A stretch of 64,000 bases of DNA, taken from contig CAWEXO010000011.1 in NCBI GenBank assembly GCA_963813025.1, forward strand, positions 544,001-608,000. Reading direction: 5' to 3'. How positions within the stretch are numbered: the stretch's first letter is position 1; the number at the start of each line of letters is the position of its first letter. The notes under the pieces are model-generated. The model was not told the origin of the DNA. It was given only the letters and a program-made list of their open reading frames with translations, and did not search any database. The DNA is from an uncultured Verrucomicrobiae bacterium. GTDB taxonomy: Bacteria; Verrucomicrobiota; Verrucomicrobiia; Chthoniobacterales; JAFAMB01. The position numbers were made by a program, and so were the translations under genes. Positions 57,102 to 62,256 of this stretch are shown in pieces.

Positions 57102-58559
57102 TCACTCGTCTCCCTTCAGCCGTTCAAGCCGCTCAGCCCGCTGATCATTTCCGAGCCGCCAGATGCCGAGACCAAGCAATACGAGAAAAGGCAGCCAGAT
57201 CTGCGAGTGTAACATGAAATAGTTTTGTCGAGTGTACTCGTGAATTGCGCGGTAGAGAACAAAGCATGACAGAGTAACAAATAGACCGGCGGCGGAAGGC
57301 ACAAATACCAGGAAAGGCACCAGCCAAGCGTTGTACCATGGGTAATCAAAGGACAGCAGGGCGGTAAATGCGAGCACCAAAAGGAAAGCCTGCCTGAGCA
57401 TCATTGTGTTCTGCGCGATGATTGGCTCGAATGCTTTCTCCGAACTCGGGCCGGTTGGATCTGGCGTTCCCAATTTCCAATTTATTTTGAGAAAAGCGCG
57501 GAAAGCGAGTGCGCCCAATCCCATGAGCGCGGATACGATGAACACCAGCGGCGGGATGCGGAAAGGGAGACCGCTCCAGTGGAGGAGATGATTGAGCAGA
57601 TTTAAGAAGTAATAGCGCTCGCCGGTCTGCAATCGCTCCTCGCGCGCATAGCTTGGCAAAAAACCAAGCACTTTGGAACCAACGCCAACAAAGTAGATGA
57701 GATAGAGCAGCGCCACAATTAATCCAGCGGAGATCGGCATTTTCCAATCGCGTTTTCGGTAAAGCACCGGAAAAAGCAGCAACGGAATGAACTTCGTCAC
57801 CATGGCGCAACCGAGGGCCAACCCGGCCGCGACGGGCTCGTTTTCGGCCCTGGCCAGGAAAGCTAGGACGAGAAACAAGATCATCACTGAATCGATGTGG
57901 CCAGCACTGGCAAATTCCCAGATTGGTAAAGGATGCCAGGCGTAGACCAGGACGCGTTCCCGCGGCAGATGCAGGACAGCCAAGAGTCGCACCAGAGCGG
58001 CGACGGTGGTCAGATCGATCAAAGCCATCGCCGCTTTGAACCAGCAGACCGAGTTGCTTAGGCAGGCAATGGCGTAGAACCACAGTTCGGCGAGCGGCGG
58101 ATAAATGGTTGGTGCGTAGTCTTTCCGATTTATCTTCGGATAGATCTGCGGATCGCGCAGCAACGCCAGATGCTGGTCGGCTGGTATATAGGCGTAGGGG
58201 CTAAATCCGGCTCGTTGTACTCGGCCGTCCCAAAGATAACGATAGAGATCGGTGGAGAGCCGTGGCGGATCCAAGGGCACCAGTAACAGTCGCGCTACTA
58301 CGGCAAAGATGAGAATAACGGCCAGGCAACCTTTGCCAAAGATAGTTGCCCGAAAACACCGATAGACGGCCAAGGCAAACGGAATGCCGCTCAATAACAG
58401 AAAGGTAGTCAGGAGGAAGATGTTATCGGCCAGGTAGGCGCTAATAGCCGCTAGTTCAAAGCAGAGGCAGGCGAGCCCAAGCCAAGTCAGACTTGGCCAG
58501 CGGAGAACGCTTTGTTCGCTTTCTACCGCAGAGGTCGATCCTGGATTCGGGCGATCCAT
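57102..58559 (-). CDS. GT-C membrane glycosyltransferase (GT87/DUF2029-like)
   Basis: Polytopic; STDLYRYLWDG, TIYPP, YAWHPL, GHIDS and YPWY motifs. Confidence 0.8.
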   Translation of the reverse strand: MDRPNPGSTSAVESEQSVLRWPSLTWLGLACLCFELAAISAYLADNIFLLTTFLLLSGIPFALAVYRCFRATIFGKGCLAVILIFAVVARLLLVPLDPPRLSTDLYRYLWDGRVQRAGFSPYAYIPADQHLALLRDPQIYPKINRKDYAPTIYPPLAELWFYAIACLSNSVCWFKAAMALIDLTTVAALVRLLAVLHLPRERVLVYAWHPLPIWEFASAGHIDSVMILFLVLAFLARAENEPVAAGLALGCAMVTKFIPLLLFPVLYRKRDWKMPISAGLIVALLYLIYFVGVGSKVLGFLPSYAREERLQTGERYYFLNLLNHLLHWSGLPFRIPPLVFIVSALMGLGALAFRAFLKINWKLGTPDPTGPSSEKAFEPIIAQNTMMLRQAFLLVLAFTALLSFDYPWYNAWLVPFLVFVPSAAGLFVTLSCFVLYRAIHEYTRQNYFMLHSQIWLPFLVLLGLGIWRLGNDQRAERLERLKGDE

Positions 58560-58567
58560 GCGGACGC

Positions 58568-59344
58568 TCAGGGCGGGAATTTGCCAGCGGCGTTTTCCCG
58601 GAAACGCCACTGTTCCAGGAATTTGCGCGTAATCGGGGCGGGATAACAAGATTCTTCCGCAGCAGATCGGGACATGAGTTCACGCGACAGACGTTCCAAC
58701 GACGCGGCGTCATCCACGTCATACCACTCGCCCAGAGTGACGACCCGCAAGCCGAGTTCCGCGGCCCTTTGGAGAGTCTGGCTGAACACGCGGTCCGTGC
58801 TCCAATCAATATTGGCAAATAACGCGGGGTAAAGCGTGGTCATCCCGATCAGATAATAACCTCCGTCTTCGGTCGGACCGAGGACGAGCCGGTCAGCCGG
58901 CGCACTAGTTAGCTGATCGATCAGCTCCTGGTAGTAATGTACGGGCAAGGACGGGCTATCGGAGTCGATCAACGCCACGCTCGAAAAGCCCACGGAGAAC
59001 AGGTCCCGGAGAGCATTGTGCAGGCGTTGGCCAAAATCGGAACCTCGTTGAGGGATCAAAAAGAATTCCGGCGGGACCGCTCCGAAAAATTCGTTTTCCG
59101 AACCGGCCGGCGTATAGATCGCTACACCCACAGCCTGGCCGGCTTTGCGGCAGGCCAGTGCGATATTCGCGGTTGTGTCCCGGAGAAAACATCGGCTCAG
59201 ATCAGCGGCTTGCTCCGGTCGAAGCGGCGGACACAATCTTGTTTTGGACTGGCCGGGTCGAGGCGCCTTGATCATGACCCCGAGTGCGCAATACCCGATC
59301 AGGCCCTTGACCGTTTTGTCTGGTTCAAGGAGTGCGAAGCTCAT
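58568..59344 (-). CDS. DUF2064 / TIGR04282 CofC-like transferase
   Basis: KAPRPGQSKTRL, QRGSDFGQRL, DSDSP, LGPTEDGGYYLIG and DVD motifs. Confidence 0.85.
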   Translation of the reverse strand: MSFALLEPDKTVKGLIGYCALGVMIKAPRPGQSKTRLCPPLRPEQAADLSRCFLRDTTANIALACRKAGQAVGVAIYTPAGSENEFFGAVPPEFFLIPQRGSDFGQRLHNALRDLFSVGFSSVALIDSDSPSLPVHYYQELIDQLTSAPADRLVLGPTEDGGYYLIGMTTLYPALFANIDWSTDRVFSQTLQRAAELGLRVVTLGEWYDVDDAASLERLSRELMSRSAAEESCYPAPITRKFLEQWRFRENAAGKFPP

Positions 59345-59499
59345 GGCTCGACGTTCCGTGGTTGAGAATCAAAGTTCAAGGCTGTCGCGCCAGATCGTTT
59401 TGGCTGAGCGATTTATCACGCCAGTCTGGCCAATGCAGGGTATCGAAGCGCGTTTAAGCGATGGGAAGGACCCGATGCCGGTAGATACGGTCTTGGATG

Positions 59500-60510
59500 T
59501 CAAGGGCATTGCTTTAAGGAATGGCGGGCCAGGTTAGGATTGTAGGGTTGTTGGTGAGCGAGAACACCGAAGGCGATGTGCAGGAGTTTTCGCATGACGG
59601 CACCGCGGATAGCCAGGGAGTGGAGCTTGCGCGACTCGAGACCTGCGGCCCATTGCTGGATGGGTTTACACCAGCGGCGAGCAACGGCGGCCGGCAAATA
59701 GAGTGCTTTGCGCAGGAAAGCGTTGCCGATTTTGCACAGGGTGGTTTTGCCGTAGAGCGAGACACCGGAACGGAATTCAGAAGGATTCAGCCCAGCATAG
59801 GCCGCCAACTGCCGAGCCGATTGGAACTCTTTACCGGCCAGCTCGGCCAGCAGCTTGGCGGCCGTGAGCTGGGCAATGCCGGGAATAGAGCACAGCAGTT
59901 GGCTTTGGCGGCTTAAAGCCTGATCAGCCGCGACTAAGCCGAAGATGGCCGACTCCAGCTGAGCGATTTCTTTCTTGAGCTGGGCGAGTCGTTGGCCACG
60001 CTGTTGGCTGATAAGCTCGGGCAGCGCAATTTGGTAAGGGTCTTTTTTCACCCGGTTCTGTTCCCGGATGAGCTTGCCAACCCGGCTTTCGCGCTCCCGC
60101 ACCAGCAGTTTGAATTCTTCCTCAAGGGGGCGCAGCGGCCGAGTGGCCAGTGGTTTTCGCTCCAGACAAAACTGGGCAATGATGGCCGCATCAACCCGAT
60201 CATTTTTGGTGCGGCGCAGGACCGAGAAAGCAAAGTATTTGACTTGGGCGGGATTGAGCACGCTGACCGCCAAGCCTGCTTGGTGCAGAGCGGCGATCAA
60301 TCTCTTCCCGTAGACCCCGGTGGCTTCCAGGGCGAAGTGGATCTGGGAGAGCGGCCAAGAGCGGGCCTGGAGTTGGGCTAAAAATGCTCCAATGCCGGTC
60401 GCATCATTGCTGAACTTTCCCCGCCACAGGCGAGTGCCATTCTTGGAGAGCAGGCAAAAGTCAAAGCTTGCTTTTGCCATATCAATACCCATGCAGTAGC
60501 GTTTTTTCAT
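59500..60510 (-). CDS. IS110 DEDD recombinase/transposase (336 aa)
   Basis: GIDMAK, LEATG and KNDRVDA (DEDD tetrad); SIPGIA, AYAGLNPSEFRSG (catalytic Ser) and GNAFLR. Confidence 0.95.
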   Translation of the reverse strand: MKKRYCMGIDMAKASFDFCLLSKNGTRLWRGKFSNDATGIGAFLAQLQARSWPLSQIHFALEATGVYGKRLIAALHQAGLAVSVLNPAQVKYFAFSVLRRTKNDRVDAAIIAQFCLERKPLATRPLRPLEEEFKLLVRERESRVGKLIREQNRVKKDPYQIALPELISQQRGQRLAQLKKEIAQLESAIFGLVAADQALSRQSQLLCSIPGIAQLTAAKLLAELAGKEFQSARQLAAYAGLNPSEFRSGVSLYGKTTLCKIGNAFLRKALYLPAAVARRWCKPIQQWAAGLESRKLHSLAIRGAVMRKLLHIAFGVLAHQQPYNPNLARHSLKQCP

Positions 60511-60559
60511 CAGACAGGAATTCGCGTTGAATTGGTTCTTTGTTTGATGAAGCGCTTGG

Positions 60560-60790
60560 GCGCGCGCCTGCTGACAGAGCCTTGTGAACACGGGCTTATG
60601 TTCCAACCCTGTTTGGAAGGGCCTAAGATACGGTACGGTCTTATGCAGGTGCGGCACGAGGAAGGGTGGACTAATCTACCGGACAGGTTCTACCGACCTT
60701 TGGGCGAGGCAGTTTTCCACCCTCCTCGGCCAAGTTCTTCACCTCCAGAGTTCCGCCCTTGCGGGCGGCTTTAAAAGGGAAAAAAAATTG
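60560..60790 (-). ncRNA. Bridge RNA of the IS110 element (5' hairpin, target-binding loop, donor-binding loop); ends approximate
   Basis: CCGCCC-GCAA-GGGCGG hairpin. The AGGGUGGA/UCCACCCU stem encloses CCUCGCCC and CCGGUAG. The CCUGC/GCAGG stem encloses ACCGUAUCU and ACAAG. Confidence 0.82.
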
Positions 60791-60807
60791 GTGGGGCAAG
60801 GTACAAG

Positions 60808-60956
60808 GGCGAACACTTGTTTTGAGCCGGACCCCGGAGTTGCCACCGTCCAAGACGGCTCAAACGAGTCCTCGCTGAAGCTCGGATAAGTTTTCGCCCT
60901 ACCGGTCGTGGACCAGCGGGATTTTGTGAGACAGCCTCTAAATTTTTGCCCTACCG
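60808..60956. repeat. REP cluster downstream of RAYT2 (split REP, double REP, degenerate REP)
   Basis: GGCGAACACTTGTTTTGAGCCG (+); cggctcaaacgagtcctcgct...ttttcgccctaccgg (-); tttttgccctaccg (-). Confidence 0.85.
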
Positions 60957-61017
60957 AAACAGGGCAAATAGTGAGTCAACGAGTGCTTAGAGCCGTCACC
61001 ACCAATCAGCAATCGGG

Positions 61018-61458
61018 TCATCTCACCTTGGAATCGCCAACGCGCTGGCTCGTCGTCAAGCCCGCCCTAATCGGATTCACGAGTATATACCGGTACCTTG
61101 CTTCAGCGCTGTCGTGGGCGCGAATCCGATGATGGAATGCCCCGGACTGCCATCTGCACCCTGGCTGATCGAATCGTAGTGAGACCCGCGATTTCCAAAT
61201 CTTGATCCAAAGATCCAGTCCGGCTGGGCCTGAGCCTGGCCAAGCAAAGAAATGCAGGTGATCAGGCATGATCATGTAGCGCCCGATGTGCCAGTCAGTT
61301 GCTTCTCCCCACGCTGCAACGAGCAATGTGTGTACCGTATCGTTAGCCAGCCATCTGACTCGCTTTCGGGTGCACACGGTGACAAGCACCAAAGTGGGCT
61401 GTTCGTCGATAAAAAGAACACCTTTTGCCGGGTGTTTGCGTGGCGGCCGATAATCCAT
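61018..61458 (-). CDS. REP-associated tyrosine transposase (RAYT, short type); probable frameshift near the C-terminus
   Basis: VTVCTRKR, YMIMPDHLHF (HUH), WQSGAFHHRIR and YILVNPIRAGL motifs. An alternative frame gives WRFQGE. Confidence 0.88.
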   Translation of the reverse strand: MDYRPPRKHPAKGVLFIDEQPTLVLVTVCTRKRVRWLANDTVHTLLVAAWGEATDWHIGRYMIMPDHLHFFAWPGSGPAGLDLWIKIWKSRVSLRFDQPGCRWQSGAFHHRIRAHDSAEARYRYILVNPIRAGLTTSQRVGDSKVR

Positions 61459-61560
61459 CTAACACAATTATTCGATGTGTTTTCGATCGGCGATTTAAAA
61501 CTTGAACTTTGGCCGCGTCAGATGAAGAGAGTGTGTCGCAACATTGGCCCGATCCCGCGC

Positions 61561-61772
61561 CGGTAGGTGAAAACTTTATTTGAGCCGTTTTGCGCGCGTG
61601 GCCTACCTTTTGGTCCGGCTCAAACAAGTTTTCGCCCTACCGATCTAGGGCGTTGCGCGACATGCTCTTTATTCGAGTGCCAAGCGAGAACTTGTTCGAG
61701 CCGGGCGCTGAGGCAGGTCACACCTAAGACGGCTCAAACAAGTCCTCGCTCGAATAAATTTTCGCCCTACCG
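61561..61772. repeat. REP doublets (REPIN-like) upstream of RAYT2
   Basis: cggtaggtgaaaactttatttgagccg (+61561) is inverted to cggctcaaacaagttttcgccctaccg (61616-61642). A second pair spans 61683-61772. Confidence 0.88.
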
Positions 61773-61863
61773 ACATCGGGCACGAGGGCGATTTCGTTGC
61801 ACTTATGCCGCGCTGTGATCTGCGATTGCTATCTGCAATCGCGAGCGCAACGTGGCAACATAA

Positions 61864-62256
61864 TCATCCCAGCACCTGCAATGCTTTTTTGAGATCGTTT
61901 GGCCGAAAGATCAACGTGCCGAGTTCCATGTGCGGTCCGCTGGCGAGGTAAGCGTACTCGATGTTTATACCGTGTTCGGCCAGCGTTTTTGCGACGGCTG
62001 ACAAGGTGCCCGGCTTATTGTCGTGCTCGACCATGAGCACTTCGTTCTCGACCACTAGGGTGCCATGAGACTCGAAAATTCCGAGCGCCTTGTGCGGATC
62101 GCTTACTACCATCCGGACCACGGCATGATCGACCGTATCCGAGATGGTGAGTCCGTAGATGTTTATCTTTTCGGCGGCCAAAGCGTCGCAAACCGCGGCC
62201 AGCGTTCCCGGTTTGTTAGCGAGAAACAGGGCGAGTTGAGTAGCAGTTTCCACCAT
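61864..62256 (-). CDS. Tandem ACT domain protein
   Basis: LANKPGTLA...INI and DNKPGTLS...GINIEYAY motifs. Confidence 0.87.
   Translation of the reverse strand: MVETATQLALFLANKPGTLAAVCDALAAEKINIYGLTISDTVDHAVVRMVVSDPHKALGIFESHGTLVVENEVLMVEHDNKPGTLSAVAKTLAEHGINIEYAYLASGPHMELGTLIFRPNDLKKALQVLG

Follow-up and report, generated by a model that had tools for sequence, protein, structure and literature searches.

The window, by which we mean the whole 64,000-nucleotide stretch of DNA that was analysed, very probably carries a complete insertion sequence of the IS110 group and IS621 type. Its predicted bridge RNA spells both the REP into which the element is inserted and the element's own joined ends. 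The element covers window positions 59485-60805 on the minus strand (1321 bp), and it resembles IS621 in its anatomy, its recombinase, the conserved structure of its predicted RNA and the place at which it splits the REP. Across related elements, the guides covary with the targets.

The element and its insertion site

On the minus strand, CT is duplicated at both edges of the element (60807-60806 and 59484-59483), the left junction following the target GTTCGCC and the right junction being followed by ACCGG; the element itself begins with TGTAC and ends with ACCGTAT. As proposed in the first-pass annotation, excision of the element together with one CT rebuilds a REP, beginning CCGGTAGGGCGAAC, the head of which is the same as in the neighbouring REPs at 60896, 60948, 61634 and 61764. 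Everything which that annotation had listed from the sequence was present when the coordinates were recomputed; its left end of about 290 nt is indeed non-coding, with a length that is now set at 295 nt. The parts of the element and of its insertion site are as follows.

60806-60814, minus strand: left half of the interrupted REP, GTTCGCC (60814-60808) and core CT (60807-60806); other copies have T(C/T)TCGCC-CT there
60511-60805, minus strand: left end (LE), 295 nt, non-coding, putative source of the bridge RNA; fold -96.3 kcal/mol, z -4.09
59500-60510, minus strand: recombinase gene, 336 aa and stop, with catalytic D10, E62, D104, D107 and S248; reading frame intact in 7 of 7 full-length copies
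59485-59499, minus strand: right end (RE), the 15 nt past the stop codon, of which the final 7 nt, ACCGTAT, are the left donor
59478-59484, minus strand: right-hand half of the split REP, with CT (59484-59483) as core and ACCGG (59482-59478) as right target; the same in 11 of 11 copies

A long left end (295 nt), a short right end (15 nt) and CT at both junctions (11 of 11 copies) are the layout of the IS110 group and not of IS1111. Elements of the IS1111 group belong to the same recombinase family and have RNA-guided site choice through a 3' seekRNA, according to Durrant et al. (2024, PMC11208160). In IS1111-group elements the right end is long, inverted repeats lie subterminally and the RNA is downstream of the gene, whereas the window element has a right end of 15 nt and its predicted RNA upstream of the gene.

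The annotation of the gene as an IS110 recombinase is borne out by matches to Pfam PF01548 (E 1.7e-31) and PF02371 (E 1.1e-21) and by a score of 204.5 bits, against a cut-off of 140, for NCBIfam NF033542 ("IS110 family RNA-guided transposase"). Residues 5-325 match the IS621 structure entry 8wt6 (E 4.6e-46) and the ISCro4 transposase (PDB 9t56, E 2.2e-44), the latter being a full-length sequence match. In the N-terminal RuvC-like DEDD domain (PF01548), D10, E62, D104 and D107 align with D11, E60, D102 and D105 of IS621, and in the C-terminal Tnp domain (PF02371), which holds the catalytic serine, S248-G249 align with S241-G242. Protein identity to IS621 is about 37%, an estimate from related tblastn matches and the phmmer alignment. 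Among plasmid records the best match to the recombinase protein had at most 41.4% identity, and the exact 336-aa protein was absent from the protein collection, where another start was probably called.

The window element shares with IS621 of Escherichia coli its domain order, catalytic residues, long LE and short RE, and CT core. The donors are nearly alike (ACAGTAT-CT-TGTAT in IS621 and ACCGTAT-CT-TGTAC in the window element), and both elements cut the REP head at the same place, CT-AC (GTAG on the opposite strand). The target word differs, being CTCGCC-CT-ACCGG for the window element as compared to ATCAGGC-CT-AC for IS621, as does the host, which for the window element is probably a member of the Verrucomicrobiota, to judge by the labels on the records of its relatives.

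REP and RAYT surroundings

The proposed REP setting also held: the target is a repeat, of which this genome has 95 exact copies that are empty, and its head motif clusters at RAYT-like genes. Within 600 bp of each of three close RAYT-like paralogues there are 3-6 REP heads, as compared to 1 per 13.5 kb genome-wide (327 sites). The gene in the window is given here for context only.

61018-61458, minus strand: RAYT-like gene, 146 aa, with the four neighbouring REP heads named above distributed on both sides

Its match to NCBIfam NF047646 (E 1.8e-16) reached 60.4 bits, under the cut-off of 80, and Pfam returned no match to it even at E 10. An H-x-H motif (PDHLHFF), which we take to be the HUH motif, is visible in the translation. 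One sub-threshold Rfam match, at 61613-61706, is an inverted REP pair.

Predicted structure of the left-end RNA

The consensus structure folds the left end as a 5' hairpin followed by two internal-loop modules. The two loops had been seen by eye in the first-pass annotation and are retained, with limits that comparative structure now places at 60731-60653 and 60652-60564.

60753-60768, minus strand: 5' stem-loop (CCGCCC/GGGCGG); helix 1, where present (7 rows), is always paired and is invariant
60653-60731, minus strand: target-binding loop module, with an outer stem of 60731-60716 with 60670-60653 and an inner hairpin at 60699-60685
60564-60652, minus strand: donor-binding loop module, with an outer stem of 60652-60645 with 60571-60564

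This structure is conserved among the relatives. In the alignment 20 pairs are compensatory, as compared to 5-7 in slid controls, and 89.5% of cells are paired, as compared to 34-51% with slid partners; helix 2 of the target loop has 16 pairs with compensatory changes in 9, and helix 5 of the donor loop has 9 pairs, of which 4 are compensatory. A covariance model, R1, trained on 8 verrucomicrobial left ends with IS621 left out, finds the experimentally defined IS621 bridge RNA (L071:393-593) at 22.1 bits, with E values against the IS621 left end of 1e-6 to 1.8e-5 that vary with the number of bases searched. In the R1 alignment all four guides of the window element (LTG, RTG, LDG and RDG) stand in homologous columns of the IS621 RNA. 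The claim of an IS621-type RNA architecture is therefore upheld by a covarying consensus fold and by the match of R1 to IS621, with the guides in shared columns. A search of Rfam 15 over 58500-62000 at E up to 10 found no family in the bridge-RNA stretch, and three sub-threshold chance matches elsewhere.

The 5' stem-loop, target loop, donor loop and homologous guide columns are common to the IS621 RNA and the predicted RNA of the window element; according to Hiraizumi et al. (2024, PMC11208158), the structure of the 5' stem-loop is conserved across IS110 orthologues. The modules of the window element are longer, the predicted stretch that begins with the 5' stem-loop and closes with the donor loop measuring about 210 nt, as compared to 177 nt for the bridge RNA of IS621 (Durrant et al., 2024, PMC11208160; Hiraizumi et al., 2024, PMC11208158).

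Guides and their match to target and donor

The first-pass annotation had claimed that the guides could be read from the sequence, and they can: the RTG matches at 7 of 7 positions, the LDG at 9 of 9, the RDG at 5 of 5 and the LTG at 6-7 of 8.

60701-60709, minus strand: LTG CCUCGCCCA (DNA word CCTCGCCCA at 60709-60701), in the same sense as the left target and first core base; R1 aligns it with the IS621 LTG AUCGGGCCU
60674-60682, minus strand: RTG CCGGUAG (60682-60676), reverse-complementary to CT-ACCGG, with the handshake bases AU directly after it (60675-60674); R1 aligns it with the IS621 RTG and handshake guide
60626-60634, minus strand: LDG ACCGUAUCU (DNA word ACCGTATCT at 60634-60626), identical to the left donor (the 7 nt that close the element) and the core CT
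60579-60585, minus strand: RDG ACAAG (60585-60581), reverse-complementary to CT-TGT, where the left end begins, and the next two bases, GC; R1 aligns it with the IS621 RDG

Adding AU extends the RTG match to 9 of 9 against the actual right junction, AT-CT-ACCGG. Natural RTG pairing is 7 nt in the window element, as compared to 4 in wild-type IS621 according to Hiraizumi et al. (2024, PMC11208158). Both elements have AU as handshake bases behind the RTG and a -35 box in the right end. The G that follows ACAAG in the RDG can, in principle, pair with left-target position 7 after strand exchange. The LTG match is inexact. Its word CCTCGCCC matches the element's own left target and C at 6 of 8 positions and TCTCGCC-C sites at 7 of 8, and the second core base never pairs with it (A opposite T), a difference from the LTG of IS621. 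The imperfect match counts against the guide reading; at empty sites, moreover, TTTCGCC (75) is far commoner than the better-matching CTCGCC (12).

If the guide words were chance resemblances or a captured piece of REP, the recombinase would recognise the REP by protein-DNA contacts or DNA structure. We consider this very improbable. The 295-nt left end was dinucleotide-shuffled 20,000 times. CCGGTAG occurred in 339 of these shuffles and ACCGTATCT in 5; TCGCCC and ACAAG occurred in 3064 and 6614, respectively, and are weak evidence alone because they are so common, which is a point in favor of the chance reading. All four words, however, occurred together in 0 of the 20,000 shuffles, and in the window element they occupy the columns of the experimentally defined guides of IS621.

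Copies and target sites in the genome

The flanks of other copies had been set in advance as a test by the first-pass annotation, and 11 of 11 two-ended copies read TCGC(C/T)-CT at the left and CT-ACCGG at the right; two left-end fragments are likewise placed after TCGCC-CT. Empty TCGCCCTACCGG sites (12-mer) number 95, as compared to about 1 expected. Full-length copies (n = 7) differ at 22 of 1321 columns, with the 336-aa reading frame intact and the guides identical in all of them. The earlier description of the element as apparently intact holds for the reading frame and the guides, and we limit it to those two. Degraded copies are present as well: one has a 77-bp internal deletion, in one a part of the gene is replaced by an IS3-family element, and two are the left-end fragments. 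In addition, a sister element with a defective recombinase has kept its own putative bridge RNA and occurs in two copies, 99.4% identical and with the same in-frame deletion, at two different REP sites. A preference for CTCGCC among occupied sites (3 of 9 window-type, as compared to 12 of 95 empty) was considered and set aside, the numbers being too small and 2 of the 3 having the same 40 nt as left flank.

Every site in this genome belongs to one repeat, so that site identity within it cannot alone separate RNA guidance from some other recognition of the REP, and to this extent the reading of the guide words as chance is favored. It also draws on ISPpu10 of Pseudomonas putida, for which a preprint (10.64898/2026.03.19.712850) reports that a target stem-loop adds specificity and is needed besides base pairing; ISPpu9 and ISPpu10 are IS110-family elements that, like the window element, lie in REP or conserved intergenic repeats, with all copies in one repeated intergenic sequence (PMC12288879; 10.64898/2026.03.19.712850). 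The sites of the window element are without a consistent stem-loop, a hairpin directly 5' of the site being found at 11 of 95 empty and 3 of 11 occupied sites, as compared to 34 of 300 random stretches.

The same precedent bears on a further alternative, in which RNA guidance is real but insufficient and a feature of the REP/RAYT context adds to site choice or to the control of copy number. In 2 of the 3 close RAYT units the REP that lies downstream of the RAYT gene, at about 200 bp, holds an IS110 copy, and only about a tenth of the matching sites are occupied. The placement at 2 of 3 units has a rough chance of about 0.03 (about 106 matching sites, 11 insertions); however, this comparison is post hoc, the two elements belong to different subfamilies, and no consistent structure lies beside the site. 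A contribution of this kind is, in our view, unlikely.

Covariation of guides and targets among relatives

RNA guidance can be told from other recognition of the REP because guides and targets covary across genomes, in a small sample of seven element groups, some of them closely related, that were scored at fixed positions (the window element, C15v, L035, L039, L040, L054 and L031). The RTG matches the group's own right flank at 7 of 7 positions in the window element, C15v, L035 (CT-ACCGT), L039 (CT-CCGGG), L040 (CT-TTGTG) and L054 (CT-CCAGG), and at 5 of 7 in the exception, L031, which was scored against five known right flanks; scored against groups with different right flanks, the RTG matches at 2-6. 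The LTG tracks the target in L040 (GGCGCCT with TGCGC-CT) and in L054 (8 of 9). The left junction of L039 was left out because the adjoining left sequence is the end of another repeat, present elsewhere in that genome. Sampling of 400 other genomes of the phylum at E 1e-40 matched one further genome (2 of 401 including this one), so that one orthologue, L054, was gained. Relatives with other targets carry correspondingly different guides, which argues against the chance reading.

Putative promoter across the joined ends

Two candidate promoter elements lie at opposite ends of the element.

60798-60803, minus strand: -10-like hexamer TACCTT, paired with the right-end -35 box only in the circle
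59498-59503, minus strand: -35 box TTGACA, which shares bases with the stop codon and stands 13 nt ahead of the core

TTGAC stands at an equal distance from the element end in six of six verrucomicrobial groups. The computed circle junction, TTGACA-17 nt-TACCTT, matches at 9 of 12 positions, with only 3 of 6 in the -10 hexamer, and the promoter rules of the host may differ. No such -35/-10 pair is present in the integrated left flank, and a simple scan for sigma-70 promoters and terminators over 59300-61000 in the integrated state found nothing.

This last result would fit an IS621-type element that is now silent or dead, its copies being left over from a past burst, with no bridge RNA made today, as would the degraded copies described above. 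We regard such an end state as quite unlikely. IS621 has a right-end -35 box and, as Durrant et al. (2024, PMC11208160) describe, its promoter is to be expected on the circle alone, so that the absence of a promoter in the integrated state says little; moreover, the seven full-length copies with their 22 variable columns include no broken reading frame and no changed guide, and the catalytic residues are intact. Among public sequencing runs, no RNA run was listed with this stretch; Logan contigs of three others, soil metagenomes and one further run, covered it in fragments with no joint at either end of the element, and are uninformative on circles, empty sites or expression.

Proposed mechanism

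By homology with IS621, the recombinase would excise the element as a circle, and the joining of its ends would make the donor site ACCGTAT-CT-TGTAC and bring TTGACA of the right end to 17 nt from TACCTT of the left end. Transcription of the left end would next yield a bridge RNA, about 210 nt long, on which recombination would depend. In this RNA the first internal loop would read the target, with CUCGCC-C on its bottom strand and CT-ACCGG on its top strand, and the second would read the junction of the element itself. By recombining at the CT core, the element would enter the conserved REP head, splitting the GTAG of the opposite strand.

Implications

The element brings nothing new in principle to what is known from IS621, where the mechanism, the targeting of REPs, a promoter at the junction and handshake bases have been described. 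The mechanism was described in 2024 and orthologues are already catalogued in thousands; Durrant et al. (2024, PMC11208160) analysed 5,511 target-ncRNA pairs and describe REP elements as IS110 targets. Our literature search found no bridge-RNA report for this phylum. Bridge recombinases are in development as programmable tools for DNA insertion, and each intact natural orthologue with readable guides is therefore a candidate for testing. The element also comes with a natural dataset, consisting of 11 sites with a copy and 95 without in a single genome, four other right-flank targets in relatives, and a defective sister element. More tentatively, it is possible, though we would not presume it, that the window element is an active, reprogrammable bridge recombinase with a guide geometry usefully unlike that of IS621 (a 7-nt RTG and two handshake bases, which make the target loop's 3' side complementary at 9 of 9 positions to the right junction after exchange, and an LTG with which the second core base does not pair), perhaps mobilising the defective sister in trans. 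If so, it would provide a naturally long-guide orthologue together with a natural pair of autonomous and non-autonomous bridge-RNA elements.

Recombinase, insertion site and the neighboring REP family

The element is an IS110-group insertion sequence of 1321 bp that runs on the minus strand from 60805 to 59485, with a CT dinucleotide on either side (60807-60806 and 59484-59483).

Parts of the element
Up to 60805, before the gene, minus strand: left end, 295 nt, non-coding
60510-59500, minus strand: recombinase gene, 336-aa protein, the only gene of the element
After the gene, to 59485, minus strand: right end, 15 nt

A longer, GTG-started frame was rejected as the gene, as relatives share the ATG start and the IS621 match begins at residue 5 counted from it. 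The protein matched the Pfam domains DEDD_Tnp_IS110 (E 1.7e-31) and Transposase_20 (E 1.1e-21) and the NCBIfam model "IS110 family RNA-guided transposase" (204.5 bits, cut-off 140). Its residues 5-325 aligned with 8-320 of the best match among solved structures, the transposase of IS621 (8wt6, E 4.6e-46), and the ISCro4 transposase came next (9t56, E 2.2e-44). Residues D10, E62, D104, D107 and S248 align with D11, E60, D102, D105 and S241 of IS621, which were shown to be essential by Hiraizumi et al. (PMC11208158).

Taking out the element together with one CT rebuilds CCGGTAGGGCGAAC..., the head of which is identical to that of the REP copies at 60896, 60948, 61634 and 61764, on both sides of a RAYT-like gene (61018-61458), as the first-pass annotation had proposed in stating that the deletion restores an intact REP. 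The insertion point splits the GTAG on the opposite strand of the REP head, which we take to be the RAYT recognition tetranucleotide, and the same split is seen in L071, a natural IS621 copy of E. coli.

The 146-aa RAYT-like ORF matched the NCBIfam REP-associated tyrosine transposase model with E 1.8e-16 but at 60.4 bits, below the cut-off of 80, and had no Pfam match. In the source genome this gene unit is present as three close copies, with 93-96% nucleotide identity over 540-680 bp, plus a distant fourth.

Close RAYT-like copies
Window 61018-61458, minus strand
C14:454669-455073, another contig of the source genome
C15:124821-125225, another contig of the source genome

Genome-wide, 327 REP head motifs were counted (1 per 13.5 kb), whereas 3-6 heads lie within 600 bp of each close copy, and this clustering makes "the RAYT's REP" a fair description, with the sub-cut-off model score as the reservation. 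At two of the three close units, the REP ~200 bp downstream of the gene is occupied by an IS110 copy, the two copies being from different subfamilies; at the third the site is empty and reads CT-ACCAG, with one mismatch to the right target guide (RTG). A sub-threshold Rfam microRNA match at 61613-61706 corresponds to two inverted REP bodies that fold together into a long hairpin with a REP head in its loop.

Structure and guides of the predicted left-end RNA

The left end folds at -96.3 kcal/mol (z -4.09), better than its shuffles. Alignment with seven other left ends, from two diverged copies in the same genome and five relatives (39-77% protein identity), gave a consensus of a 5' hairpin, a long stem around internal loop 1, which has a small hairpin inside it, and a further stem around internal loop 2. 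When the alignment was cut to the RNA, 89.5% of cells were paired and compensatory changes were found at 20 of 50 pairs, vs. 34-51% and 5-7 pairs in controls with the pairing partners slid by 1-3 columns; its covariation score was reached by none of 500 shuffles.

Because no matching family was present in Rfam 15, a covariance model was built from the eight left ends alone, without IS621, and searched against L071, which was identified from its protein sequence and the published target ATCAGGC-CT. Along its full length the IS621 left end was matched by the model (L071:393-593) with 22.1 bits and an E value that, according to the number of bases searched, ranged from 1e-6 to 1.8e-5. Left ends from Rhodanobacter (~19 bits) and Deinococcus (34 bits), which are more distant relatives, were matched too. 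The two internal loops, which had been folded by eye and likened to the IS621 bridge RNA, are borne out by the consensus fold, the compensatory pairs and this match.

Guides of the window element
60709-60701, minus strand: left target guide (LTG) CCUCGCCCA, same sense as the left target plus first core base
60682-60676, minus strand: RTG CCGGUAG, 7/7 reverse complement of CT-ACCGG
60675-60674, minus strand: handshake AU, last two donor bases; with the RTG, 9/9 against the right junction AT-CT-ACCGG
60634-60626, minus strand: left donor guide (LDG) ACCGUAUCU, 9/9 identical to the last 7 nt of the element plus core
60585-60581, minus strand: right donor guide (RDG) ACAAG, reverse complement of CT-TGT at the start of the element

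The model places the IS621 LTG, RTG with handshake bases, LDG and RDG, at the positions given by Hiraizumi et al. (PMC11208158), in the columns of the four guide words read in the first-pass annotation. When the left end was dinucleotide-shuffled 20,000 times, the RTG word occurred in 339 of the shuffles and the LDG word in 5, and the short words were frequent (TCGCCC in 3064, ACAAG in 6614), but all four jointly were never found. The handshake logic follows that described for IS621 by Hiraizumi et al. (PMC11208158), and the G after the RDG can, by predicted pairing, bind left-target position 7 once strands are exchanged. The LTG is imperfect, with 6-7 of 8 positions matching the left target plus first core base and the second core base never paired; among empty sites the better-matching CTCGCC is the minority (12 vs. 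75 TTCGCC). The inner hairpin of the target loop (60685-60699, AGGUCGGUAGAACCU) contains CGGUAG, a near copy of the RTG, which is also present in the relative L035 and absent in L039, L040 and IS621.

Copies and target sites in the source genome

Seven full-length copies were found in the genome, with 22 of 1321 columns variable and with the ORF intact and the guides identical in all. The others comprise a copy that has lost 77 bp internally, a copy in which an IS3-family element stands in for part of the gene, two left-end fragments, and two copies of a sister element that is diverged and has an internal deletion. All 11 copies with both ends are flanked by T(C/T)TCGC(C/T)-CT on the left (GTTCGCC-CT for the window copy) and CT-ACCGG on the right, both fragments follow TCGCC-CT, and no copy in the genome lies at a site unrelated to the guides, which agrees with the flank NNTCGCC-CT-ACCG predicted beforehand. 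The 12-mer TCGCCCTACCGG has 95 further, unoccupied occurrences, where base composition predicts ~1; the target is thus a genuine repeat family, of which about a tenth of matching members are occupied according to these counts.

In the IS3-bearing copy (C9:67091-69145) element positions 297-1011 are swapped for a 1449-bp element with a pair of overlapping frames, the latter of which resembles a transposase by eye; three copies of this element are present in the genome at >=99.6% identity. The two sister copies (C15:123620-124627 and C9:218161-219169; ~1008 bp, 99.4% identical) have left ends 90% identical and right parts 82% identical to the main element. An in-frame internal deletion common to both takes out the coiled coil and the D104/D107 region; both retain their own bridge RNA (LTG CUUCGCCC) and occupy two different REP sites. 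The shared deletion at different sites indicates that the sister element moved once the deletion had arisen, presumably in trans; the 80%-complete assembly contained no full-length member of the subfamily.

Guide-target covariation among relatives

As all sites in the source genome belong to one repeat, relatives that land elsewhere provide the separating test for RNA guidance. The RTG was read at fixed positions (GU-NNNNNAG-AU) in seven groups, some of them close kin.

RTG and right flank by group
Window element: CCGGUAG, CT-ACCGG, 7/7
L035: ACGGUAG, CT-ACCGT, 7/7
L039: CCCGGAG, CT-CCGGG, 7/7
L040 (8 copies with right flank): CACAAAG, CT-TTGTG, 7/7
L054: CCUGGAG, CT-CCAGG, 7/7
L031 group (5 right flanks): UAGCUAG, CT-ACCT(G/T), 5/7

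The sister element also matched at 7/7, but its target is the same as that of the window element. Against the right flanks of groups with other flanks, RTGs matched at 2-6 of 7 positions. The sole exception to a full match was the L031 group (L031, L032, L033, L034 and L037; relatives at 76% protein identity), in which one change is compensated and a mismatch falls on the second base past the core. The LTG tracks the target as well: GGCGCCU for TGCGC-CT in L040, CGCCGCACU for CACCGCA-CT in L054 (8/9), and UGCGCUCCU for TGCGCTC-CT in Rhodanobacter L047 (9/9 by eye). Additionally, L054 has a different donor (TCACCAT-CT-TGTTAG), and both its donor guides have changed accordingly. The L039 left junction was dropped from the comparison, as another repeat abuts it. 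The upstream region of L045 (~1150-1250), a relative from a Verrucomicrobiae MAG, shows a tandem triplication at the start of the copy; the repeated unit is the first 11 nt at the left junction, core included (CTTGTATCTTC).

A possible promoter at the circle junction

Joining the ends in silico creates TTGACA, 17 nt and TACCTT across the core, which matches the consensus at 9 of 12 positions (-10 hexamer 3/6), a consensus that may not reflect the promoter rules of the host. No such pair is found in the integrated left flank, and in all six verrucomicrobial groups TTGAC keeps the same spacing to the element's end. This putative junction pair matches the account of Durrant et al. (PMC11208160) that a promoter is re-formed over the core upon excision. 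The left end itself contains a weaker candidate, TTGCCC-18-TTTAAA (8/12), which stops immediately ahead of the 5' hairpin. A check of public sequencing runs listed no RNA run that contains the stretch, and the contigs examined, from soil, were fragmented.

A DUF2064 gene (58568-59344; PF09837, E 5.9e-29) on the same strand starts ~140 bp past the right end, whose outward-facing TTGACA could in principle form part of a hybrid promoter; the flank hexamer 17 nt downstream is CGGCAT, a poor -10 as read by eye.

Relationship to IS621

The element and IS621 have in common their domains, catalytic residues, end architecture, CT core, near-identical donor word, REP-head target, RNA modules, handshake bases and right-end -35 box. 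They differ in protein sequence (~37% identity), target word, and host phylum, which for the element is probably Verrucomicrobiota, judging by its nearest relatives. The RTG of the element is naturally 7 nt, whereas wild-type IS621 pairs 4 according to Hiraizumi et al. (PMC11208158), and its LTG, unlike that of IS621, stops at the first core base. A full-text search found no paper joining Verrucomicrobia with bridge recombinases or IS110 bridge RNAs; the clade may already be listed in supplementary orthologue tables of the 2024-2025 papers. Taken together, the sequence comparisons support the first-pass reading of a REP-programmed IS110 bridge recombinase of IS621 architecture. The element is, at the level of sequence, the same kind of system as IS621, and is as such a candidate for RNA guidance, circle formation and present activity.
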